In this document: positions 1 to 6,856 of the stretch, in pieces
How positions within the stretch are numbered: position 1 is the first letter of the stretch
Layout of the letters: every line of letters starts with the position of its first letter
IMG/VR virus record: IMGVR_UViG_2675903433_000039
Coordinates: 1-6,856 of that record
Origin: a virus
Taxonomy: Duplodnaviria; Heunggongvirae; Uroviricota; Caudoviricetes
Direction: 5' to 3' (one strand)
DNA: 6,856 nt
The notes under the pieces: generated by a model
Database searches by the model: none
The model's input: only the letters and a program-made list of their open reading frames with translations
Told to the model about the DNA's origin: nothing
Translations under genes and position numbers: made by a program

Positions 1-46
1 AGGTTGCTCCGGGCTATGAAATAGAAAAATGAATCCGTTGAAGCCT
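1..46. other. Host chromosomal DNA flanking the prophage (bacterial arm of the lambda attachment site)
   Basis: Sequence ...gaaatagaaaaatgaatccgttgaagcctgc immediately left of the att core matches my recollection of the E. coli attB left arm. It is not phage-like and lies outside int. Confidence 0.7.
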
Positions 47-60
47 GCTTTTTATACTAA
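47..60. other. attL: attL core (overlap region O) of a lambda-type attachment site
   Basis: gctttttatactaa at 47-60 corresponds to the lambda common core GCTTTTTTATACTAA as I recall it. It is flanked on the left by attB-like DNA and on the right by P'-arm sequence (gttggcattataaaaaagcattgc...), which is the B-O-P' arrangement of attL. The T-run is 5 T here against 6 in my memory of the canonical core. Confidence 0.85.
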
Positions 61-133
61 GTTGGCATTATAAAAAAGCATTGCTTATCAATTTGTTGCA
101 ACGAACAGGTCACTATCAGTCAAAATAAAATCA
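61..133. promoter_or_regulatory. attL P' arm with IHF H' site and three Int arm-type sites
   Basis: tatcaatttgttg at 86-98 fits the IHF consensus WATCAANNNNTTR. Three tandem arm-type Int sites follow: aggtcactat (107-116), cagtcaaaat (117-126), aaatcattat (127-136). The position directly upstream of the int stop is as in lambda. Confidence 0.8.
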
Positions 134-1204
134 TTATTTGATTTCAATTTTGTCCCACTCCCTGCCTCTGTCATCACGATACTGTGATGCCATGGTGTCC
201 GACTTATGCCCGAGAAGATGTTGAGCAAACTTATCGCTTATCTGCTTCTCATAGAGTCTTGCAGACAAACTGCGCAACTCGTGAAAGGTCGGCGGATCCC
301 CTTCGAAGGAAAGACCTGATGCTTTTCGTGCGCGCATAAAATACCTTGATACTGTGCCGGATGAAAGCGGTTCACGATGAGTAGATGCAATTATGGTTTC
401 TCCGCCAAGAATCTCTTTGCATTTATCAAGTGTTTCCTTCATTGATATCCCGAGAGCATCAACATGCAATGTTGTAGGGATGGCAATTTTTACGCCTGTT
501 TTGCTTTGCTCGACATAAAGATATCCATCTACGATATCAGACCACTTCATTTCGCATAAATCACCAACTCGCTGCCCGGTAACAACAGCCAGCTCCATTG
601 CAAGTCTTAGCCAACATGGTGATGATTCTGCTGCTTGATAAATTTTCAGGTATTCGTCAGCCGTAAGTCTTGATCTCCTTACCTCTGATTTTGCTGCGCG
701 AGTGGCAGCGACCGGGTTTGTTGTTATATGGCCTTCAGCTATTGCCTCTCGGAATGCATCGCTCAGTGTTGATCTGATTAACTTGGCTGACGCCGCCTTG
801 CCCTCGTCTATGTATCCACTGAGCATTGCCGCAATTTCTTTTGTGGTGATGTCTTCAAGTGGAGCATCAGGCAGCCCCCTCCTTATTGCTTTAATTTTGC
901 TCATGTAATTTATGAGAGTCTTCTGCTTGATTCCTCTGCTGGCGAGGATTTTTTCGTAGCGATCAAGCCATGAATGTAACGTAACAGAATTATCACTGTT
1001 GATTCTCGCTGTCAGAGGCTTGTGTTTGTGTCCTGAAAATAACTCAATGTTGGCCTGTATTGCTTCAGTGATTGCTATCCTCCTGTCTCGGCCTAATCCA
1101 AACTCTTTACCCGTCCTTGGGTCCCTGTAGCAGTAATATCCATTGTTTCTTATATAAAGATTAGGGGGTAAATCCCGGCGCTCATGACTTCGCCTTCTTC
1201 CCAT
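134..1204 (-). CDS. int: Tyrosine site-specific integrase, lambda Int
   Basis: 356-aa ORF whose translation (MGRRRSHERRDLPPNLYIRNNGYYCYRDPRTGKEF ... HLLGHKSDTMASQYRDDRGREWDKIEIK) matches lambda Int as I recall it, including the C-terminal catalytic region (HxLR ... Y in SQYRDD). Adjacent to attL and overlapping xis by 23 nt as in lambda. Confidence 0.97.
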   Translation of the reverse strand: MGRRRSHERRDLPPNLYIRNNGYYCYRDPRTGKEFGLGRDRRIAITEAIQANIELFSGHKHKPLTARINSDNSVTLHSWLDRYEKILASRGIKQKTLINYMSKIKAIRRGLPDAPLEDITTKEIAAMLSGYIDEGKAASAKLIRSTLSDAFREAIAEGHITTNPVAATRAAKSEVRRSRLTADEYLKIYQAAESSPCWLRLAMELAVVTGQRVGDLCEMKWSDIVDGYLYVEQSKTGVKIAIPTTLHVDALGISMKETLDKCKEILGGETIIASTHREPLSSGTVSRYFMRARKASGLSFEGDPPTFHELRSLSARLYEKQISDKFAQHLLGHKSDTMASQYRDDRGREWDKIEIK

Positions 1205-1400
1205 TTCTGATCCTCTTCAAAAGGCTACCTGTTACTGGTCGATTTAAGTCAACCTTTACCGCTGATTCGTGGAACAGATACTCTCTTCCATCCTTAACCG
1301 GAGGAGGGAATATCCTGCATTCGCGCACCCATCGACGAACTGTTTCAAGGCTTCTTGGGCGTCGCTGGCGTGCATTCCACTCCTGAAGTGTCAAGTACAT
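1182..1400 (-). CDS. xis: Excisionase, lambda Xis
   Basis: 72-aa ORF MYLTLQEWNARQRRPRSLETVRRWVRECRIFPPPVKDGREYLFHESAVKVDLNRPVTGSLLKRIRNGKKAKS matches lambda Xis from memory. Its 3' end overlaps the int start by 23 nt. Confidence 0.95.
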   Translation of the reverse strand: MYLTLQEWNARQRRPRSLETVRRWVRECRIFPPPVKDGREYLFHESAVKVDLNRPVTGSLLKRIRNGKKAKS

Positions 1401-1521
1401 CGCAAAGTCTCCGCAATTACACGCAAGAAAAGCCGCATTGATGCGGCGATGGTAGGTCTGGATATCATTGAGCCATGAACAGGCCTCATCGAGTGTGAGG
1501 CTGTGGTTAGTCCTTTCGTAA

Positions 1522-1719
1522 CTCGCTGATTCTCCTGTAAGTCTCTGGTGCTTTGTTTCCGTGTATCTTCATTTCGGCGCATGGGCTTGTAGCGCGTGTC
1601 ACGATGAAATCGACCGACGCACCCATAACCTCGACAACAAAGACGCCAGACTTTACCACCTCGAAGGCGTGATCAGGACGCAGGCGATACTGCTGAAGGA
1701 GGGGAAGATTAAGTCATGA
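1522..1719 (+). pseudogene. 3' remnant of a truncated nin-region gene upstream of rusA (no credible start codon)
   Basis: An open frame runs from the stop at 1519-1521 to a TGA at 1717-1719 that overlaps the rusA ATG (ATGA coupling). It reads ...VYLHFGAWACSACHDEIDRRTHNLDNKDARLYHLEGVIRTQAILLKEGKIKS*. It has no ATG and no Shine-Dalgarno at its 5' end, consistent with a gene truncated at a deletion or recombination junction. Identity not established. Confidence 0.3.
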
Positions 1720-2078
1720 ACGAATATCAGTTTGTGCTTCCATACCCGCCGTCGGTGAATACCTACTGGCGAAGACGGGGAAGCCAATACTACATCAGCG
1801 ATAAAGGCCAGAAATACCGAAAAGACGTTCAGCAAATCATCCACCAACTCAAGTTAGATATTTTCACCAAATCACGACTCCGCATCAAAGTAATCGCAGA
1901 CGTTCCAGACTCCCGCCGCCGCGACCTAGATAACATCCTGAAGGGTTTACTCGACTCCCTTATCCATGCCGGATTTGCGGAAGACGACGAGCAATTCGAT
2001 GACATTCGCGTAATTCGTGGTGTGAAAGTACCAGGCGGACGGCTTGGAATAAAAATCACCGAACTGGAGAACGCATGA
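1716..2078 (+). CDS. rusA: Holliday junction resolvase RusA (lambdoid nin-region endonuclease)
   Basis: 120-aa ORF with RusA hallmarks shared with E. coli K-12 RusA as I recall it: N-terminal LPYPPSVNTYW (K-12: LPWPPSNNRYY), the RRRDLDN motif with catalytic Asp residues, and C-terminal GGRLGIKITE. Same length as K-12 RusA. Good RBS (aggagg/ggaag) upstream; the stop overlaps the next ATG. Confidence 0.9.
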   Translation: MNEYQFVLPYPPSVNTYWRRRGSQYYISDKGQKYRKDVQQIIHQLKLDIFTKSRLRIKVIADVPDSRRRDLDNILKGLLDSLIHAGFAEDDEQFDDIRVIRGVKVPGGRLGIKITELENA

Positions 2079-2263
2079 ACGCCACAATTCAAACGATACC
2101 AGAGCTTCTTATCCAGACACGAGGCAATCAGACCGAAGTGGCGAGGATGCTTTCCTGCGCAAGAGGAACAGTGCTCAAGTACAACCGAGACAGCAAAGGC
2201 GAGCGTCATGTAATAGTTAACGGCGTCCTGATGGTCAAACAGGGCAAGAGGGGAAGACGATGA
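2075..2263 (+). CDS. ninH: NinH-like small DNA-binding protein (nin region)
   Basis: 62-aa ORF MNATIQTIPELLIQTRGNQTEVARMLSCARGTVLKYNRDSKGERHVIVNGVLMVKQGKRGRR resembles lambda NinH as I recall it (..KTIPDML..YGNQTEVARRL.CSRGTV.KY..D..G..H.IVN.VLMV..). Translationally coupled to rusA (ATGA). The C-terminus diverges from lambda NinH just before the low-GC insertion. Confidence 0.75.
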   Translation: MNATIQTIPELLIQTRGNQTEVARMLSCARGTVLKYNRDSKGERHVIVNGVLMVKQGKRGRR

Positions 2264-2391
2264 GACTCGAAAGCGTAGCTAAATTTCATTCGCCAAAAAG
2301 CCCGATGATGAGCGACTCACTACTGGCCACAGTTTATTGGTTTTCGTAACTGAGTCATTTTATTATTTTATTGCAACTTTTAATCTTTTAT

Positions 2392-2428
2392 AGTGCGAAA
2401 TAAATGGAGCTGGCATTCATTTCGCACT
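2392..2428 (+). terminator. Perfect 10-bp inverted repeat (agtgcgaaat / atttcgcact) with a 17-nt loop, followed by a T-rich tract; possible terminator of rightward nin transcription
   Basis: Arms at 2392-2401 and 2419-2428 are exact reverse complements. ttatgtttttgttgg follows on the plus strand. The loop is long for a canonical intrinsic terminator, hence the low confidence. Confidence 0.3.
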
Positions 2429-2474
2429 TTATGTTTTTGTTGGACTTATGTTATTTTGATTGAATTCAATTCAG

Positions 2475-3434
2475 TTAAAAAAAGAAGGTGATTGCTCCAT
2501 TTATAAATGAATAGTCATCCCCTGTCTTGAATTCTGATGTTACTTTATTAAATGCTAGTGTGAAGGCTACAGGTGCATACCCAATTGTTGCGCCAACTTG
2601 ATATTCATCAACAGTTTTGTTTAGCGATACTGTTGTTTGTTTCGTCTGTATTGTTTTTCCTTCGAGAGTATAGTTGCGATTGACATCTCGTCTTTCCATA
2701 CCTGCAAAAATCTTGTATTTGAATCCGCTTGTATCGGACATATGCATTAAACCACGGGGAGCCAGCAGACCAAAGCCATTATCCGAATTGAAGGTTTTAT
2801 CATTACCAATGGCAATGGTTGCGCCATATGCTACATATTGAAATAAGTTTCCAGTAACAGCAGAAACTTCAGGGTATAATCCAACATTAGCACCTAAAAT
2901 ATCCATACTTGGTGTCATGGATAGCATCCCTTTTACAGTATAACCGTAGCGATTCTCTATTTGATCATCCCATGCATGATATTTTTCTGCCCCAATAATC
3001 TCATGAGCTTTATTTTGTACTTTCTGACCGCCTGCGTCGGGGCCAACAACACCTATGTCAGTACCTAATCGATAGCGAATCCAGTCATTCGCAAGGGAGT
3101 TCCATTCAATACCAGTGTGAGTGTATGCACTAAAAGCTCTGTCTCCAGTTACAGCTGTGTTGTGTCTTTTATTACTGCCTGATGGAGAGTAAATATCTTG
3201 CGCAATATGGAGAGATAATTGGCTCGAGTCTGAGATATCGTGGCTATATCCCAGAAATAAGCCTTGTGAGTAATCATCTCTGTTTTCATGTTTATTGCCA
3301 TAAATATCATTAAGTATTGGTTGAAACTTCCCTGCATCATCATTTGCTAATGATAATGCAAGGCTGTTCGCGATAGCTGAACACGTGGTAAATGACAGAG
3401 CAATAAAGACGCCAGCGATGACACTTTTTTTCAT
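2475..3434 (-). CDS. lpxR: Outer-membrane lipid A 3'-O-deacylase LpxR (beta-barrel, signal peptide); prophage accessory gene
   Basis: 319-aa ORF with an N-terminal signal peptide (MKKSVIAGVFIALSFTTCSAIA) and a C-terminal aromatic ...ITFFF typical of outer-membrane beta-barrels. Length and sequence character match Salmonella LpxR and its E. coli O157 prophage orthologue as I recall them. RBS GGAAG lies 10 nt upstream of the ATG. Low GC relative to the flanking phage genes. Confidence 0.7.
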   Translation of the reverse strand: MKKSVIAGVFIALSFTTCSAIANSLALSLANDDAGKFQPILNDIYGNKHENRDDYSQGLFLGYSHDISDSSQLSLHIAQDIYSPSGSNKRHNTAVTGDRAFSAYTHTGIEWNSLANDWIRYRLGTDIGVVGPDAGGQKVQNKAHEIIGAEKYHAWDDQIENRYGYTVKGMLSMTPSMDILGANVGLYPEVSAVTGNLFQYVAYGATIAIGNDKTFNSDNGFGLLAPRGLMHMSDTSGFKYKIFAGMERRDVNRNYTLEGKTIQTKQTTVSLNKTVDEYQVGATIGYAPVAFTLAFNKVTSEFKTGDDYSFINGAITFFF

Positions 3435-3720
3435 ATGTTATTGTCTTCCTTTTTTTTGAATGGTGCGCGTATTTTACATACATGAGTTTGTAATACAAGG
3501 TGCGTAATCAATATGATGTTTTATAATTGCGTGAGACAATTGATTTATTCGTTTTTTATTGCGGTTTTTATTATCTTTTAATGTAACGGTGTTTTTATTA
3601 AGTGTGTTTGCGTGGTGTTTTATGTTTTTTATAATTTTTATTTTATTAAATTTAAAAGCATTAGTAATGGCTATTCTATATAGCAATATAAGAACTGTTA
3701 CAAAAAAAGGGGGGGCAATT
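3435..3720. promoter_or_regulatory. AT-rich, T-tract-phased (probably intrinsically curved) upstream region of lpxR; likely promoter and silencing region
   Basis: Very AT-rich intergenic DNA with T-runs recurring at roughly helical spacing between about 3550 and 3650. Lies directly upstream of the lpxR start (minus strand) and divergent from the Q-like gene. Confidence 0.3.
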
Positions 3721-3909
3721 ACAGGTAGTTATGGATGATGAGTGAAACAGATATTGGAGAACCGGGGAATGAATGATGTCTGAGTCTTATATATCAGAAC
3801 TCCTTCGCTGTCGCTGGGGGCTCCTGTGCTTATGTCGTTTCCCCGATTCGGTTTTGAACGATTACCGAATGTTGAAGAATTATGCCAAAATATAGAAAGG
3901 ATTTACTGC

Positions 3910-4599
3910 ATGAATACCCAATATTTACAGTATGTTCGTGAGCAACTTATGGCAGCTACTGCTGACTTGAACGGAGCAACGAAAGGCCAGCTCGAAGCCT
4001 GGCAGGAGCATGCACAATTTGATACTGGTACATACAAACGAAAGAAGCCGCGCATTCTGGATGTGGTAACTGGCAAGATGATTACGCTGGATAATACGCC
4101 GACTTCCGGTAAGCAGTCGTACGCAAAAGGTTCATCCATTGCTTTGGTCAGCCCGGTTGAATTCTCAACCTCTTCATGGCGCCGCGCGGTTTTGTCTCTC
4201 GATGAACATCAGAAAGCATGGTTGCTTTGGTGTTACAGCGAAAGCGTTCGATGGGGGCATCAGGTCACCATAACGCAATGGGCATGGAGCGAGTTTAAAG
4301 ATTTGTTAAGTAACAGAAAAATTGCAGGTAAGACACTGGATCGCCTGAAGACGTTAATCTGGCTGGCTGCACAGGATGTGAAGAGCGAACTTGCAGGGCG
4401 TGAGGCCTATGAATACCAGACACTGGCATCATTGGTGGGAGTGACAACAAAAAACTGGTCCGAGACATTTACTGAACGCTGGGTTGCAATGAAGCACATT
4501 TTTCTACAGCTTGATAGTGATGCTTTATTGCTTGTGACGAGAACACGTTCAAAACAAAAGGCAGCATTTTTACAGCAAAATATTGCAAAACTGGATTAA
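3910..4599 (+). CDS. Putative late-gene antiterminator Q (large Q-like family of lambdoid prophages); the longest ORF starts at 3826
   Basis: Located between the nin genes and the lysis cassette, where Q sits in lambdoid phages. The ~230-257 aa size is consistent with the large Q variants annotated in E. coli prophages. The ATG at 3910 has a good RBS (aaagga, 8 nt spacer); the upstream in-frame ATG at 3826 has a weaker one. Assignment is by position and general resemblance, not verified by search. Confidence 0.55.
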   Translation: MNTQYLQYVREQLMAATADLNGATKGQLEAWQEHAQFDTGTYKRKKPRILDVVTGKMITLDNTPTSGKQSYAKGSSIALVSPVEFSTSSWRRAVLSLDEHQKAWLLWCYSESVRWGHQVTITQWAWSEFKDLLSNRKIAGKTLDRLKTLIWLAAQDVKSELAGREAYEYQTLASLVGVTTKNWSETFTERWVAMKHIFLQLDSDALLLVTRTRSKQKAAFLQQNIAKLD

Positions 4600-4647
4600 A
4601 AGCCATATACTTCATGCAAATTTGGTATGTTGTAAAAAATGTATAAA

Positions 4648-4671
4648 CCCGCTGCCGAGTGGGTTTTTTTT
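4648..4671 (+). terminator. Rho-independent terminator-like hairpin ~50 bp downstream of the Q-like gene
   Basis: Stem cccgct (4648-4653) / agtggg (4658-4663) with one G-U pair, loop gccg, followed by a run of 8 T (4664-4671). An A-tract upstream (aaaaaatgtataaa) could make it bidirectional. Confidence 0.5.
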
Positions 4672-4743
4672 ATGCCCTGAGTTGTACTTGTACGGTAAAC
4701 ATGCTGGCTGCTATGTAATAGAGTTTTTTTAGCCTGTAACCTC

Positions 4744-4773
4744 TTGACGGCATTGAATTGCTTTTGTTATGAG
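4744..4773 (+). promoter_or_regulatory. Sigma70-like promoter candidate upstream of the membrane-protein gene (possible late promoter pR' or moron promoter)
   Basis: TTGACG (4744-4749), a 17-18 bp spacer, then TTATGA/TATGAG. The spacer contains ATTGAA at the same position as in lambda pR' (TTGACTtATTGAA...) as I recall it. A tandem TTGTAC TTGTAC repeat at 4682-4693 lies just upstream. Confidence 0.3.
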
Positions 4774-4810
4774 TTGTAAGCCAATGTTATCATCTTGTAT
4801 TGGGGTGGTT

Positions 4811-5527
4811 ATGAAGGATGGTGCGCTGCTCAGGAGTTCTTCACTTTTTATTGCCTACATGGGATGCCTTGGATGGGGGAGTGCTTATTTCTATGGATGG
4901 GGTACTTCTTTTTACTACGGCTTCCCATGGTGGATTGTAGGTGCAGGTGTTGATGATGTTGCCAGAAGTTTATTTTTTGCAGTTATCGTCATTGCTATAT
5001 TTCTTATCGGTTGGGGTATTGGTGTTGTATTCTTTTTCGCAGTGAAAAGAAAACATTCTATGCAAGAGCTAAATGTATTTCGCCTTTATTTTGCTGTGGA
5101 ATTATTGTTTGTGCCGGCAATTATTGAGTTTTCTATATTGAGACAGAAGATTCAGGTACCTCTTTTGCTACTGTCAGCAGCGATTGCGCTGGCGGTTACA
5201 ATTTCGATAAGATCTTATGGGCGATTTTTATCGGTATCATGCTTCTATGATAAGCCATTTATAAAAAAACATTTTTTTGAGATTGTGATGATTGCTTTTG
5301 TGGCATATTTTTGGCTTTTTTCATTTCTGACAGGATATTACAAACCACAGTTTAAGAAAGAATATGAAATGATTAATTATAATGATGGTTGGTATTATGT
5401 TCTTGCTCGTTATGATAATTGTCTGGTTTTGTCTACTTCTTTCAATGCAGGTAGTAAAAGGTTTGTCATTTATCAATCAGCACAAGATAAGAATCTTCAG
5501 GTTGATATTGTAAGGACCAGAATTTAA
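4811..5527 (+). CDS. Uncharacterised integral membrane protein (about five predicted TM helices plus a ~60-aa C-terminal soluble domain); low-GC accessory gene
   Basis: Long ORF (maximal 4769-5527; alternative starts at 4769, 4784 and 4811, with gggg/ggtgg upstream of 4811). Hydrophobic segments include FAVIVIAIFLIGWGIGVVFFFAV, LYFAVELLFVPAIIEFSIL, LLLLSAAIALAVTISI and FFEIVMIAFVAYFWLFSFLTGYY, with an aromatic/Gly-rich N-terminal segment (GWGSAYFYGWGTSFYYGFPWW). Codon usage is AT-rich compared with neighbouring phage genes. No family recognised. Confidence 0.7.
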   Translation: MKDGALLRSSSLFIAYMGCLGWGSAYFYGWGTSFYYGFPWWIVGAGVDDVARSLFFAVIVIAIFLIGWGIGVVFFFAVKRKHSMQELNVFRLYFAVELLFVPAIIEFSILRQKIQVPLLLLSAAIALAVTISIRSYGRFLSVSCFYDKPFIKKHFFEIVMIAFVAYFWLFSFLTGYYKPQFKKEYEMINYNDGWYYVLARYDNCLVLSTSFNAGSKRFVIYQSAQDKNLQVDIVRTRI

Positions 5528-5660
5528 TTGGCTGCATAAATAATATTTTAAGTTGCAAGTTGGCTATTCGTAGGAATAGAACCTTAGGCATGCTGAATGC
5601 GTTTTCTGAACATTGTTTTATAAACTGTGTCTGCTTGCTGTTGTGATCCTGCTTTTAGTG

Positions 5661-5771
5661 ATGGTGATGATGGATTTCACCAGCAGGATAATGTTGGTAC
5701 TGACTGATGGCGCTCTGGTCTGCGGCATTGTGGTATTGCTGTGGCCGATGATGAAAGAACAGAATGAATAA
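5661..5771 (+). CDS. Hypothetical 36-aa hydrophobic micro-protein (MVMMDFTSRIMLVLTDGALVCGIVVLLWPMMKEQNE)
   Basis: Short ORF with one predicted TM segment, ending 3 nt before the -35 of the downstream promoter-like element. It has no obvious Shine-Dalgarno and contains the rare AGG-ATA codon pair, so coding status is uncertain. Confidence 0.2.
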   Translation: MVMMDFTSRIMLVLTDGALVCGIVVLLWPMMKEQNE

Positions 5772-5774
5772 TTC

Positions 5775-5803
5775 TTGACTTTTTTGTTTACTGTTTATTA
5801 AAA
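5775..5803 (+). promoter_or_regulatory. Late-promoter-like element (pR' candidate): TTGACT -35, ~17 bp spacer, A/T-rich -10
   Basis: TTGACT at 5775-5780, then a 17-bp spacer and TTAAAA (or TATTAA with a shorter spacer). An intrinsic terminator lies about 175 nt downstream and the holin start about 410 bp beyond that, a geometry like the lambda pR'-tR'-S arrangement as I recall it. Confidence 0.35.
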
Positions 5804-5957
5804 AATCAACCGCATGGTGAATCCTCCTTGGAGGGGCTAAATGATCGAGTTTTAAGGGCACGTAGCGAGTTCTGTTTGATCATTGCAGAACTTAGCGGGA
5901 GGCGCCATGCGTACATCACTAATGTTATTTCCTTCTATCATTTTCCTTGTGAGTTCT

Positions 5958-5984
5958 GGCTGCGCATGGCGCGGCCTTTTTTTT
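5958..5984 (+). terminator. Rho-independent terminator (tR'-like) in the late leader
   Basis: GC-rich stem ggctgcgc (5958-5965) / gcgcggcc (5969-5976) with one G-U pair and a short loop, followed by 8 consecutive T (5977-5984). Confidence 0.55.
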
Positions 5985-6173
5985 ATGACCTGCCACTGGC
6001 AGATGGTCATCCTGTGATTTGATTCCGGTTCCGGCTTTTTAACTCTGTTCCTGTACACGGGAGAAATTCTATGTCGATTAATCGTTATGATATTGGTTAC
6101 AAGAAGTACCACGTATTGTGTTGAGATAGAAAGCATGGTGCCAGAGGTAAATGCAGCAGCATAATAAAAAAGA

Positions 6174-6213
6174 GCCAGCGCAGAAGAGAACGGGTAAAAG
6201 AGTCTGCGCTGGC
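6174..6213. repeat. Perfect 11-bp inverted repeat (gccagcgcaga / tctgcgctggc) with an 18-nt loop, adjacent to a second small GGGG/CCCC hairpin
   Basis: Arms at 6174-6184 and 6203-6213 are exact reverse complements. On the minus strand the structure is followed by ctcttttttattat, so it could act as a minus-strand terminator. ggggatattcccc follows at 6216-6228. Confidence 0.4.
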
Positions 6214-6329
6214 GTGGGGATATTCCCCGTGGAGAAATGATATGTAACACACATCGGGAACCTTTCTATATAAACATTATCATTATTGTCAATCATAACA
6301 GTCAGGTATTATGACGTTTATGCATCAGG

Positions 6330-6360
6330 GCCATCAGGAATTAACTGGTGGCTTTTTATT
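6330..6360 (+). terminator. Terminator-like hairpin 35 bp upstream of the holin start
   Basis: Stem gccatcag (6330-6337) / ctggtggc (6345-6352) with one G-U pair, loop gaattaa, followed by tttttatt (6353-6360). Confidence 0.45.
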
Positions 6361-6392
6361 GTTGTCAGCTTCCGGATAACGGGAGACGGGGT

Positions 6393-6608
6393 ATGTACCA
6401 GATGGAAAAAATAACAACAGGTGTGTCATACACCACGTCAGCGGTGGGGACGGGATACTGGCTACTGCAGTTGCTGGACAAAGTCTCCCCATCCCAGTGG
6501 GTGGCAATAGGCGTATTGGGTAGCCTGGTGTTTGGCTTGCTGACGTATCTGACAAACCTTTATTTCAAGATTAAAGAAGATAAGCGTAAGGCTGCGAGAG
6601 GTGAATAA
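6393..6608 (+). CDS. Phage-21-type holin (pinholin, S21/EssD family) with dual-start motif
   Basis: Translation [71 protein letters not shown] closely resembles S21/EssD as I recall them (..[44 protein letters not shown]). RBS gggaga upstream. Met1 and Met4 form the holin/antiholin dual start. The ORF track extends the frame upstream to 6348, but that start has no RBS. Confidence 0.92.
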
Positions 6609-6856
6609 TGTCGCCATCATTACGCAAGGCTGTTGCTGCTGCTATTGGTGGTGGGGCTGTTGCCATAGCGTCTGTGCTCATCACTGGTCCGAGTGGTGAC
6701 GATGGCCTGGAAGGTGTCAGCTACATACCATACGAAGATATCGTTGGCGTATGGACTGTATGTCACGGACACACCGGAAAAGACATCATTCCCGGTAAAA
6801 CGTATACCAAAGCAGAATGCAAAGCACTCTTGAATAAAGACCTTGCCACTGTCGCC
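6608..6856 (+). CDS. SAR endolysin (phage-21 R-type lysozyme), 5' partial; continues past the window end
   Basis: The ATG at 6608 overlaps the holin stop (TAATG). Translation [83 protein letters not shown] matches the N-terminal signal-anchor-release domain and start of the lysozyme domain of R21/RrrD as I recall them. Open to the end of the window. Confidence 0.9.

Follow-up and report, generated by a model that had tools for sequence, protein, structure and literature searches.

Why does the resolvase gene rusA begin almost directly behind the excisionase gene xis in this prophage, and what became of the DNA that belongs between them? In functional lambdoid phages a full early region (recombination genes, N, cI, cro, cII, O, P and nin) lies between the same anchors. 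In the stretch analysed here (hereafter the window; 6,856 nucleotides, positions 1 to 6,856 of IMG/VR record IMGVR_UViG_2675903433_000039), the ATG of rusA (1716) stands 316 bases past the first base of xis (1400), with 315 bp between the two genes. An earlier note made from the letters alone had given this spacing correctly, and had taken it to mean either that more than 10 kb of early region was lost or that the element was assembled by illegitimate recombination. Our alignments indicate that positions 1401-1719 are very probably the scar of a single deletion within a lambda-type prophage that was already defective.

A lambda-type prophage has integrated between ybhC and ybhB, at the lambda attachment site, and the window covers its left end. 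Its lambdoid modules stand in canonical order, from att, int and xis through a truncated DUF1364 gene to rusA, ninH, Q, holin and the start of the lysozyme gene (Table 1). Int aligns over residues 1-356 with lambda Int (5j0n, 1z1g), with 5 substitutions and an identical C-terminal catalytic segment, and 71 of the 72 Xis residues are identical to those of lambda Xis (PDB 1pm6). RusA aligns over 1-119 with E. coli RusA (1q8r) and keeps the RRRDLDN acidic motif. The description of int, xis, Q and the start of the lysis cassette as intact is thereby borne out. The same note had stated that a repressor and pL/pR are absent, which holds between xis and the nin genes, and we found no ORF or Pfam hit for cI, cro, N, O or P anywhere in the window. 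Rfam families and tRNAs are likewise absent from it.

Table 1. Features of the window (positions are those of the whole stretch)
Feature	Position	Strand	Basis or remark
Bacterial arm, ybhC side	1-46		
attL common core, GC-T5-ATACTAA	47-60	+	bacterial arm to the left, P' arm to the right
int, lambda-type tyrosine integrase, 356 aa, full length	134-1204	-	Pfam Phage_integrase and lambda arm-binding domain
xis, lambda excisionase, 72 aa, full length	1182-1400	-	Pfam Exc, E=4e-41
pI promoter region with cII box TTGCGTGTAATTGCGG (1411-1426)	1395-1426	-	sequence reading and curated phage 434 annotation
Terminator upstream of xis, hairpin (1432-1447) and T tract	1425-1447	-	GCCGCATCAATGCGGC then TTTTCTTGCG
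3' stub of phage-434 ORF114 homologue (WP_001281774.1, 114 aa)	1507-1575	-	last 22 codons and stop
Deletion junction, 2-bp TC common to both parental flanks	1574-1575		three-way alignment
3' stub of DUF1364/YbcO nuclease gene (WP_000002261.1, 96 aa)	1576-1719	+	codons 49-96
rusA, Holliday-junction resolvase, 120 aa, full length	1716-2078	+	Pfam RusA
ninH, full length	2075-2263	+	Pfam Phage_NinH, positions 1-60 of 60
5' stub of lambda/HK97-type Q gene, 72 bp	2260-2331	+	
lpxR, AT-rich	2475-3434	-	Pfam LpxR, E=7e-40
ylcG	3776-3895	+	
Complete phage-82-type Q gene	3910-4599	+	Phage_antiter_Q, E=2e-91
Two small ORFs, phage-21-type holin (6393-6608), start of lysozyme gene	right end of window		

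Several features of the right-hand part deserve mention in their own right. An older scar of module exchange is visible at 2260-2475, where the 5' stub of a Q gene follows ninH, after which homology ends and the GC content is about 0.33. The lpxR gene, an opposite-strand moron of the lipid A 3'-O-deacylase family, sits between this stub and the second, complete Q, and the relatives carry the same block. The spacer between lpxR and ylcG/Q (3435-3825) is very AT-rich (GC 0.24-0.31). A promoter-like site (TTGCAA, a 17-nt spacer, TATACT) in 4583-4666 overlaps the end of Q and is followed by a strong terminator-like hairpin (4645-4666), an arrangement that resembles a pR'/tR' late-promoter unit. 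On the minus strand, an ORF of 132 aa (5852-6250) is annotated as frameshifted in relatives.

The interval between xis and rusA consists of retained regulatory DNA and two gene stubs. Next to xis, the native regulatory DNA is intact as far as the left stub and comprises the cII box of pI and a terminator hairpin. We placed pI and its box from the annotation of OL657226.1 ('pI promoter; CII-controlled', 'CII binding site'; locus offset 421). Over xis, pI, the terminator and the 3' end of ORF114, phage 434 DNA is 99.5% identical to the window, and the counterpart of the terminator is annotated in the phage 434 record as 'terminator, PMID:6305007'. This terminator would halt unmodified leftward transcription ahead of xis. 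The left stub translates as EMKIHGNKAPETYRRISELRKD followed by a stop, which is the C-terminus of WP_001281774.1; the 5' 92 codons and the start are deleted, and the homologue is complete in O26, UTME-12, E105 and phage 434. This headless gene on the opposite strand had been missed in the earlier note. What had been recognised there was a start-less 3' fragment before rusA, and this fragment proves to be the end of WP_000002261.1. Against the Pfam YbcO profile it covers positions 49-91 of 92 only, its N-terminal half and native start being deleted, and its stop overlaps the start of rusA (ATGA). Both truncated genes are presumably dead, and we infer that the scar itself is functionless; scans for Rfam families, tRNAs and sigma-70-like promoters gave nothing to suggest that it encodes anything.

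Placing the breakpoint by alignment, a check proposed at the outset, gave a base-exact answer. A three-way alignment puts the junction between 1575 and 1576, in codon 49 of the 96 of the DUF1364 gene. Window 1-1575 corresponds to positions 641-2216 of the prophage locus of E. coli O26:H11 11368 (L001) with 99.94% identity, and window 1574-6095 to positions 15908-20428 of the same locus with 99.74% identity. In O26:H11 11368 the two pieces therefore belong to one prophage, in the same order and orientation, with 13,691 bp between them. A chance pattern is excluded: over kilobases, each flank has 99.7-100% identity with known prophages, and the change from one match to the other takes place within 2 bp. 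The undeleted arrangement, which the earlier note had suggested looking for in other strains, was also found in UTME-12, where 4,588 bp, including a 1,310-bp IS3-family element, separate the same anchors. Measured against O26:H11 11368, the loss of more than 10 kb claimed at the start is correct.

The segment missing relative to O26 can be read from left to right. Its left part holds the 5' part of ORF114, small ea-type genes, the erf and anti-RecBCD recombination genes and IS600; its middle holds kil, cIII, sieB', cII', a frameshifted O, P and ren; and its right part holds ninB, ninE, an IS3-family element, ninF, a KilAC antirepressor gene and the 5' half of the DUF1364 gene. N, cI and cro are already gone from the O26 copy, in which sieB' abuts cII'.

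To the right of the junction, the window is identical to O26 over 1574-5921, and 5922-6856 fits UTME, as does the T5 attL core; as to the immediate parent, the SNPs point both ways. Differences at 5922, 5928 and 5935, all three inside the minus-strand ORF at 5852-6250, separate the window from O26, UTME-12 and E105. A 2.3-kb segment with a DUF6645 pseudogene (L001 20429-22712) is present in O26 and absent from the window and the UTME strains. UTME-12 differs from the window by four single-base indels (3625, 4664, 5928 and 5977), each with one T fewer in UTME-12. At least three of the four (3625, 4664 and 5977) fall in T runs of 6-8 bases, that at 4664 in the T tract of the terminator-like hairpin past Q, and at these three the finished O26 genome reads as the window does. 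The indels may be homopolymer errors in the UTME assemblies and not real differences.

How might such a junction have arisen? We propose that a homology-independent (illegitimate) joining event fused a point in the leftward ORF114-like gene to a point in the rightward DUF1364/YbcO gene. Everything between the two points would have been removed, that is, 13,691 bp from an O26-like parent or 4,588 bp from an IS-shortened, UTME-like parent. Three other routes were considered and rejected: IS-adjacent deletion by transposition, because the junction has no IS end; Int-mediated deletion at a secondary att site, because both endpoints lie away from any att core; and homologous recombination between repeats, as the parental flanks share 2 bp only. 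Because the shared sequence is limited to 2 bp and neither endpoint carries an IS end, an att core or a repeat, the deletion appears to have been illegitimate and not dependent on homology. The earlier mention of illegitimate recombination agrees with this, in that a join between flanks sharing 2 bp is not homologous. The TC overlap does not identify the joining mechanism, since about 16% of random joins are expected to share 2 bp. The trigger could have been generic replication slippage or an end-joining error, and equally a break left by excision of the IS3-family element.

The last of these triggers leads to a more specific account of the same deletion, which we regard as possible but tentative. 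Excision of an IS3-family (IS629-like, 1,310 bp) element inside the interval would have started the event: the transposase would cut the IS ends, nucleases would resect the flanks, and the IS-excision enhancer (IEE) polymerase would rejoin them at a short microhomology. In a UTME-type parent, resection would have covered about 450 bp on the left side and about 2.8 kb on the right. An IS3-family element does lie inside the deleted interval in every close relative, the junction itself is free of IS sequence, and its two sides share a microhomology of 2 bp. IEE performs microhomology-mediated end joining in vitro with overlaps of 2-6 nt, and the IEE-linked process is reported to give rise to deletions beside an IS that range from a few nucleotides to over 40 kb (PMC9943667). 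However, neither deletion endpoint coincides with an IS end, the 2-bp overlap is not above chance, and the element is known by its length and family alone, its identity as IS629 being putative.

A megablast search across the junction covered 5,426 complete E. coli genomes and 50,697 phage records, and no junction-spanning match was found in any of either. The two sides are common when taken separately: window 1-1575 has a 99.9-100% match in about 1,950 of the 5,426 genomes, and the window from 1574 onward has a 100% match in O26 and O103 strains. An exact scan for the junction 31-mer found nothing in species-representative genomes, IMG/VR viral contigs or metagenome contigs, and exact look-up of the products of the three junction-spanning ORFs returned no record. 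Since the junction is absent from every collection searched, its distribution marks it as a private deletion allele and not as a native layout.

The earlier note had left room for the opposite, namely that the compact xis-nin layout is native to a functional phage or satellite that carries its immunity genes elsewhere. We consider this almost certainly wrong. Not one phage record or complete E. coli genome has the layout, and nothing else was found in its favour. Functional phages carry in full the two genes that are truncated at the junction: ORF114 is whole in phage 434, and HK97, HK022, HK620 and the mEp phages, which match from window 1574 onward only, all have a complete DUF1364 gene. Moreover, the closest complete prophage, that of UTME-12, is 44 kb long and devoid of immunity and replication genes throughout, and an IS lies within its J gene.

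That the junction occurs in no other public sequence searched could also be expected if assembly or sequencing had produced a chimeric contig, and the interval in the relatives holds repeated IS elements, which are common assembly breakers. Yet such repeats end contigs at the borders of the IS, whereas the join here lies 450 bp and 2.8 kb from those borders, and assemblers do not fuse sequences over an overlap of 2 bp. The flanks are clean, and a finished genome is identical to the window over the 4,348 bp right of the junction. An artefact is thus hardly credible, and a real deletion remains our preferred reading.

The relatives at the ybhC-ybhB site place this deletion in a longer history. 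The best overall match to the window is found in four pig isolates (UTME-9, -10, -12 and -14), with 100% identity over the left flank and 99.83% over 5,283 bp of the right flank. Window 1-1575 matches the ybhC-side prophage end of UTME-12 and E105 at 100% and that of O26 at 99.9%, and the Sakai genome annotates 'prophage Sp3' at the same site. In the UTME isolates the 1,310-bp IS3-family element replaces about 9.1 kb, from the ea genes into ren (hyp'-IS-ren'). The whole UTME-12 prophage runs for 44 kb from ybhC to ybhB without an annotated repressor, cro, N, O or P, and carries lpxR, iss, lom, nleH, cif, nleG and espJ. E105 has a different early-region deletion (hyp'-IS-ninG', followed by a phosphatase gene), O26 has the sieB'-cII' deletion, and Sp3 of O157 Sakai has a bet'-ninG deletion together with a broken int.

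These comparisons also allow a two-prophage origin to be weighed. Recombination between co-resident lambdoid prophages could have joined a left arm from the ybhC prophage to a right arm from elsewhere, which would imply a larger chromosomal rearrangement and not an internal deletion. EHEC-type strains do carry many near-identical lambdoid prophages, and the right-hand segment occurs at 2-10 places per genome. However, in O26, UTME-12 and others both arms match one and the same prophage at 99.7-100%, with their order and orientation conserved; the join lacks the homology that would drive an exchange; and this route needs more events, whereas an internal deletion needs one. We therefore judge a two-prophage origin very improbable and retain the internal deletion.

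The lineage shows at least five independent early-region deletions, that of the window and at least four others (Sp3, O26, UTME and E105). The repressor, N and cro were lost earlier in the lineage than the DNA removed by the window's deletion. Loss was stepwise, given that the O26 copy is already without N, cI and cro and the UTME copy already short of about 9 kb, and the event that made the junction may have taken only 4.6 kb of debris. O26, UTME-12, E105 and Sp3 all keep lpxR, Q and the lysis block, and the picture resembles repeated erosion in which cargo is retained; T3SS effector genes (nleH, cif, espJ, nleG), which belong at the right end of Sp3-type prophages and so beyond the window, are present in UTME-12 and E105. 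The 5' stub of Q is common to O26, UTME-12 and E105, and ylcG is annotated in all three, while neither is annotated in Sp3. Published work on Sakai describes a similar state: Sp3 and Sp8 have no cI and cro, Sp3 also has no replication functions, and neither circularises (PMC2669165). More generally, grounded prophages are prone to deletions, along a path on which att or recombinase defects come first and deletions follow (PMC6379469).

What the window has in common with its relatives, and what is its own, can be stated briefly. The window conforms to the Sp3-type prophage family that EHEC/EPEC strains carry at ybhC-ybhB. All four relatives have the same integration site and attL arm, O26, UTME-12 and E105 also have the same lambda-type int and xis (99.9-100%), and all four, like the window, are without an immunity region. 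Sp3 of O157:H7 Sakai differs in its disrupted int and in keeping exo and bet'. Only the window fuses ORF114' directly to DUF1364', thereby also removing ninB, ninE, ninF and the KilAC antirepressor gene. HK97-type phages are 96-98% identical to it over the 3' part of the DUF1364 gene, rusA, ninH and the 5' end of Q.

DLP12 of E. coli K-12 belongs to the same architecture class. It keeps int and a remnant of xis, and its exo'-P'-ren' deletion took immunity, N and the replication genes. Past that scar the order is ybcN, ninE, ybcO, rusA, ylcG, Q, an opposite-strand outer-membrane-protein moron and holin-lysozyme-Rz. DLP12 differs in lying at argU with a different integrase, in its xis being a pseudogene and its ybcO complete, and in the several kb of accessory genes (emrE, ybcK, ybcL, ybcM) between scar and nin genes; its RusA has diverged from that of the window (93.9 bits over 119 aa). 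The feature is thus ordinary, well-documented prophage decay of the DLP12 kind, and the junction itself is new to the databases searched.

What would the deletion mean for excision? The claim that int and xis are kept intact stands as regards their sequence, which does not by itself make them usable: pL, N and cII no longer feed into them, and attL is one T shorter in its core than the attR of the closest relatives. Both genes appear to be stranded, because pL and N have been lost, the terminator upstream of xis has been retained, and pI needs the absent cII. Compared with the canonical lambda/434 core, attL lacks one T (T5) in the window and likewise in UTME-12 and E105, and T6 is found in the O26 attL, the phage 434 attP and the attR of E105 and UTME-12. 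The T5 is probably real, since seven complete genomes (PE164, E105, the four UTME strains and Z1323PEC0008) are identical to the window over 1-1575, T5 included. A mismatch between T5 in attL and T6 in attR changes the core-site spacing on one partner only and would be expected to impair Int-mediated excision. Given the loss of pL, N and cII, the terminator kept upstream of xis and the T5 in attL against T6 in the relatives' attR, the element is probably locked in the chromosome as a grounded prophage remnant, a reading drawn from sequence comparison.

Expression across the scar is probably lost as well. The upstream nin operon and pR-derived transcription are gone, and a simple scan of 1100-2500 found no sigma-70-like promoter on either strand, although weak or non-consensus promoters can escape such a scan; rusA and ninH are for these reasons probably silent. 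Mahdi, Sharples, Mandal and Lloyd reportedly observed in 1996 that the rusA gene of DLP12 is normally silent and that upstream IS insertions activate it. One could imagine that the deletion in the window was selected and not neutral, having stripped the last toxic or regulatory early genes (kil and the KilAC antirepressor gene) and put DUF1364'-rusA-ninH, its translational coupling through the ATGA overlap retained, under fortuitous transcription. We think selection of this kind most unlikely. If the deletion had been selected, the host would gain a RuvABC-independent Holliday-junction resolvase, and the locus would parallel in nature the rus-1 and rus-2 activations by which DLP12 rusA was switched on in the laboratory. 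It is likely that the remnant persists for its cargo, namely lpxR and, as carried by the relatives, nleH, cif and espJ.

As a marker specific to a strain or clade, the junction can be detected by a PCR from xis to rusA that would give a 0.5-kb product. If the source strain carries iee, the locus may also offer a natural test case for IS-excision-associated deletion. For the family as a whole, the junction is a further independent early-region deletion allele in a lineage that has at least four others, and taken together the alleles illustrate how the immunity, replication and recombination modules have been eroded repeatedly.
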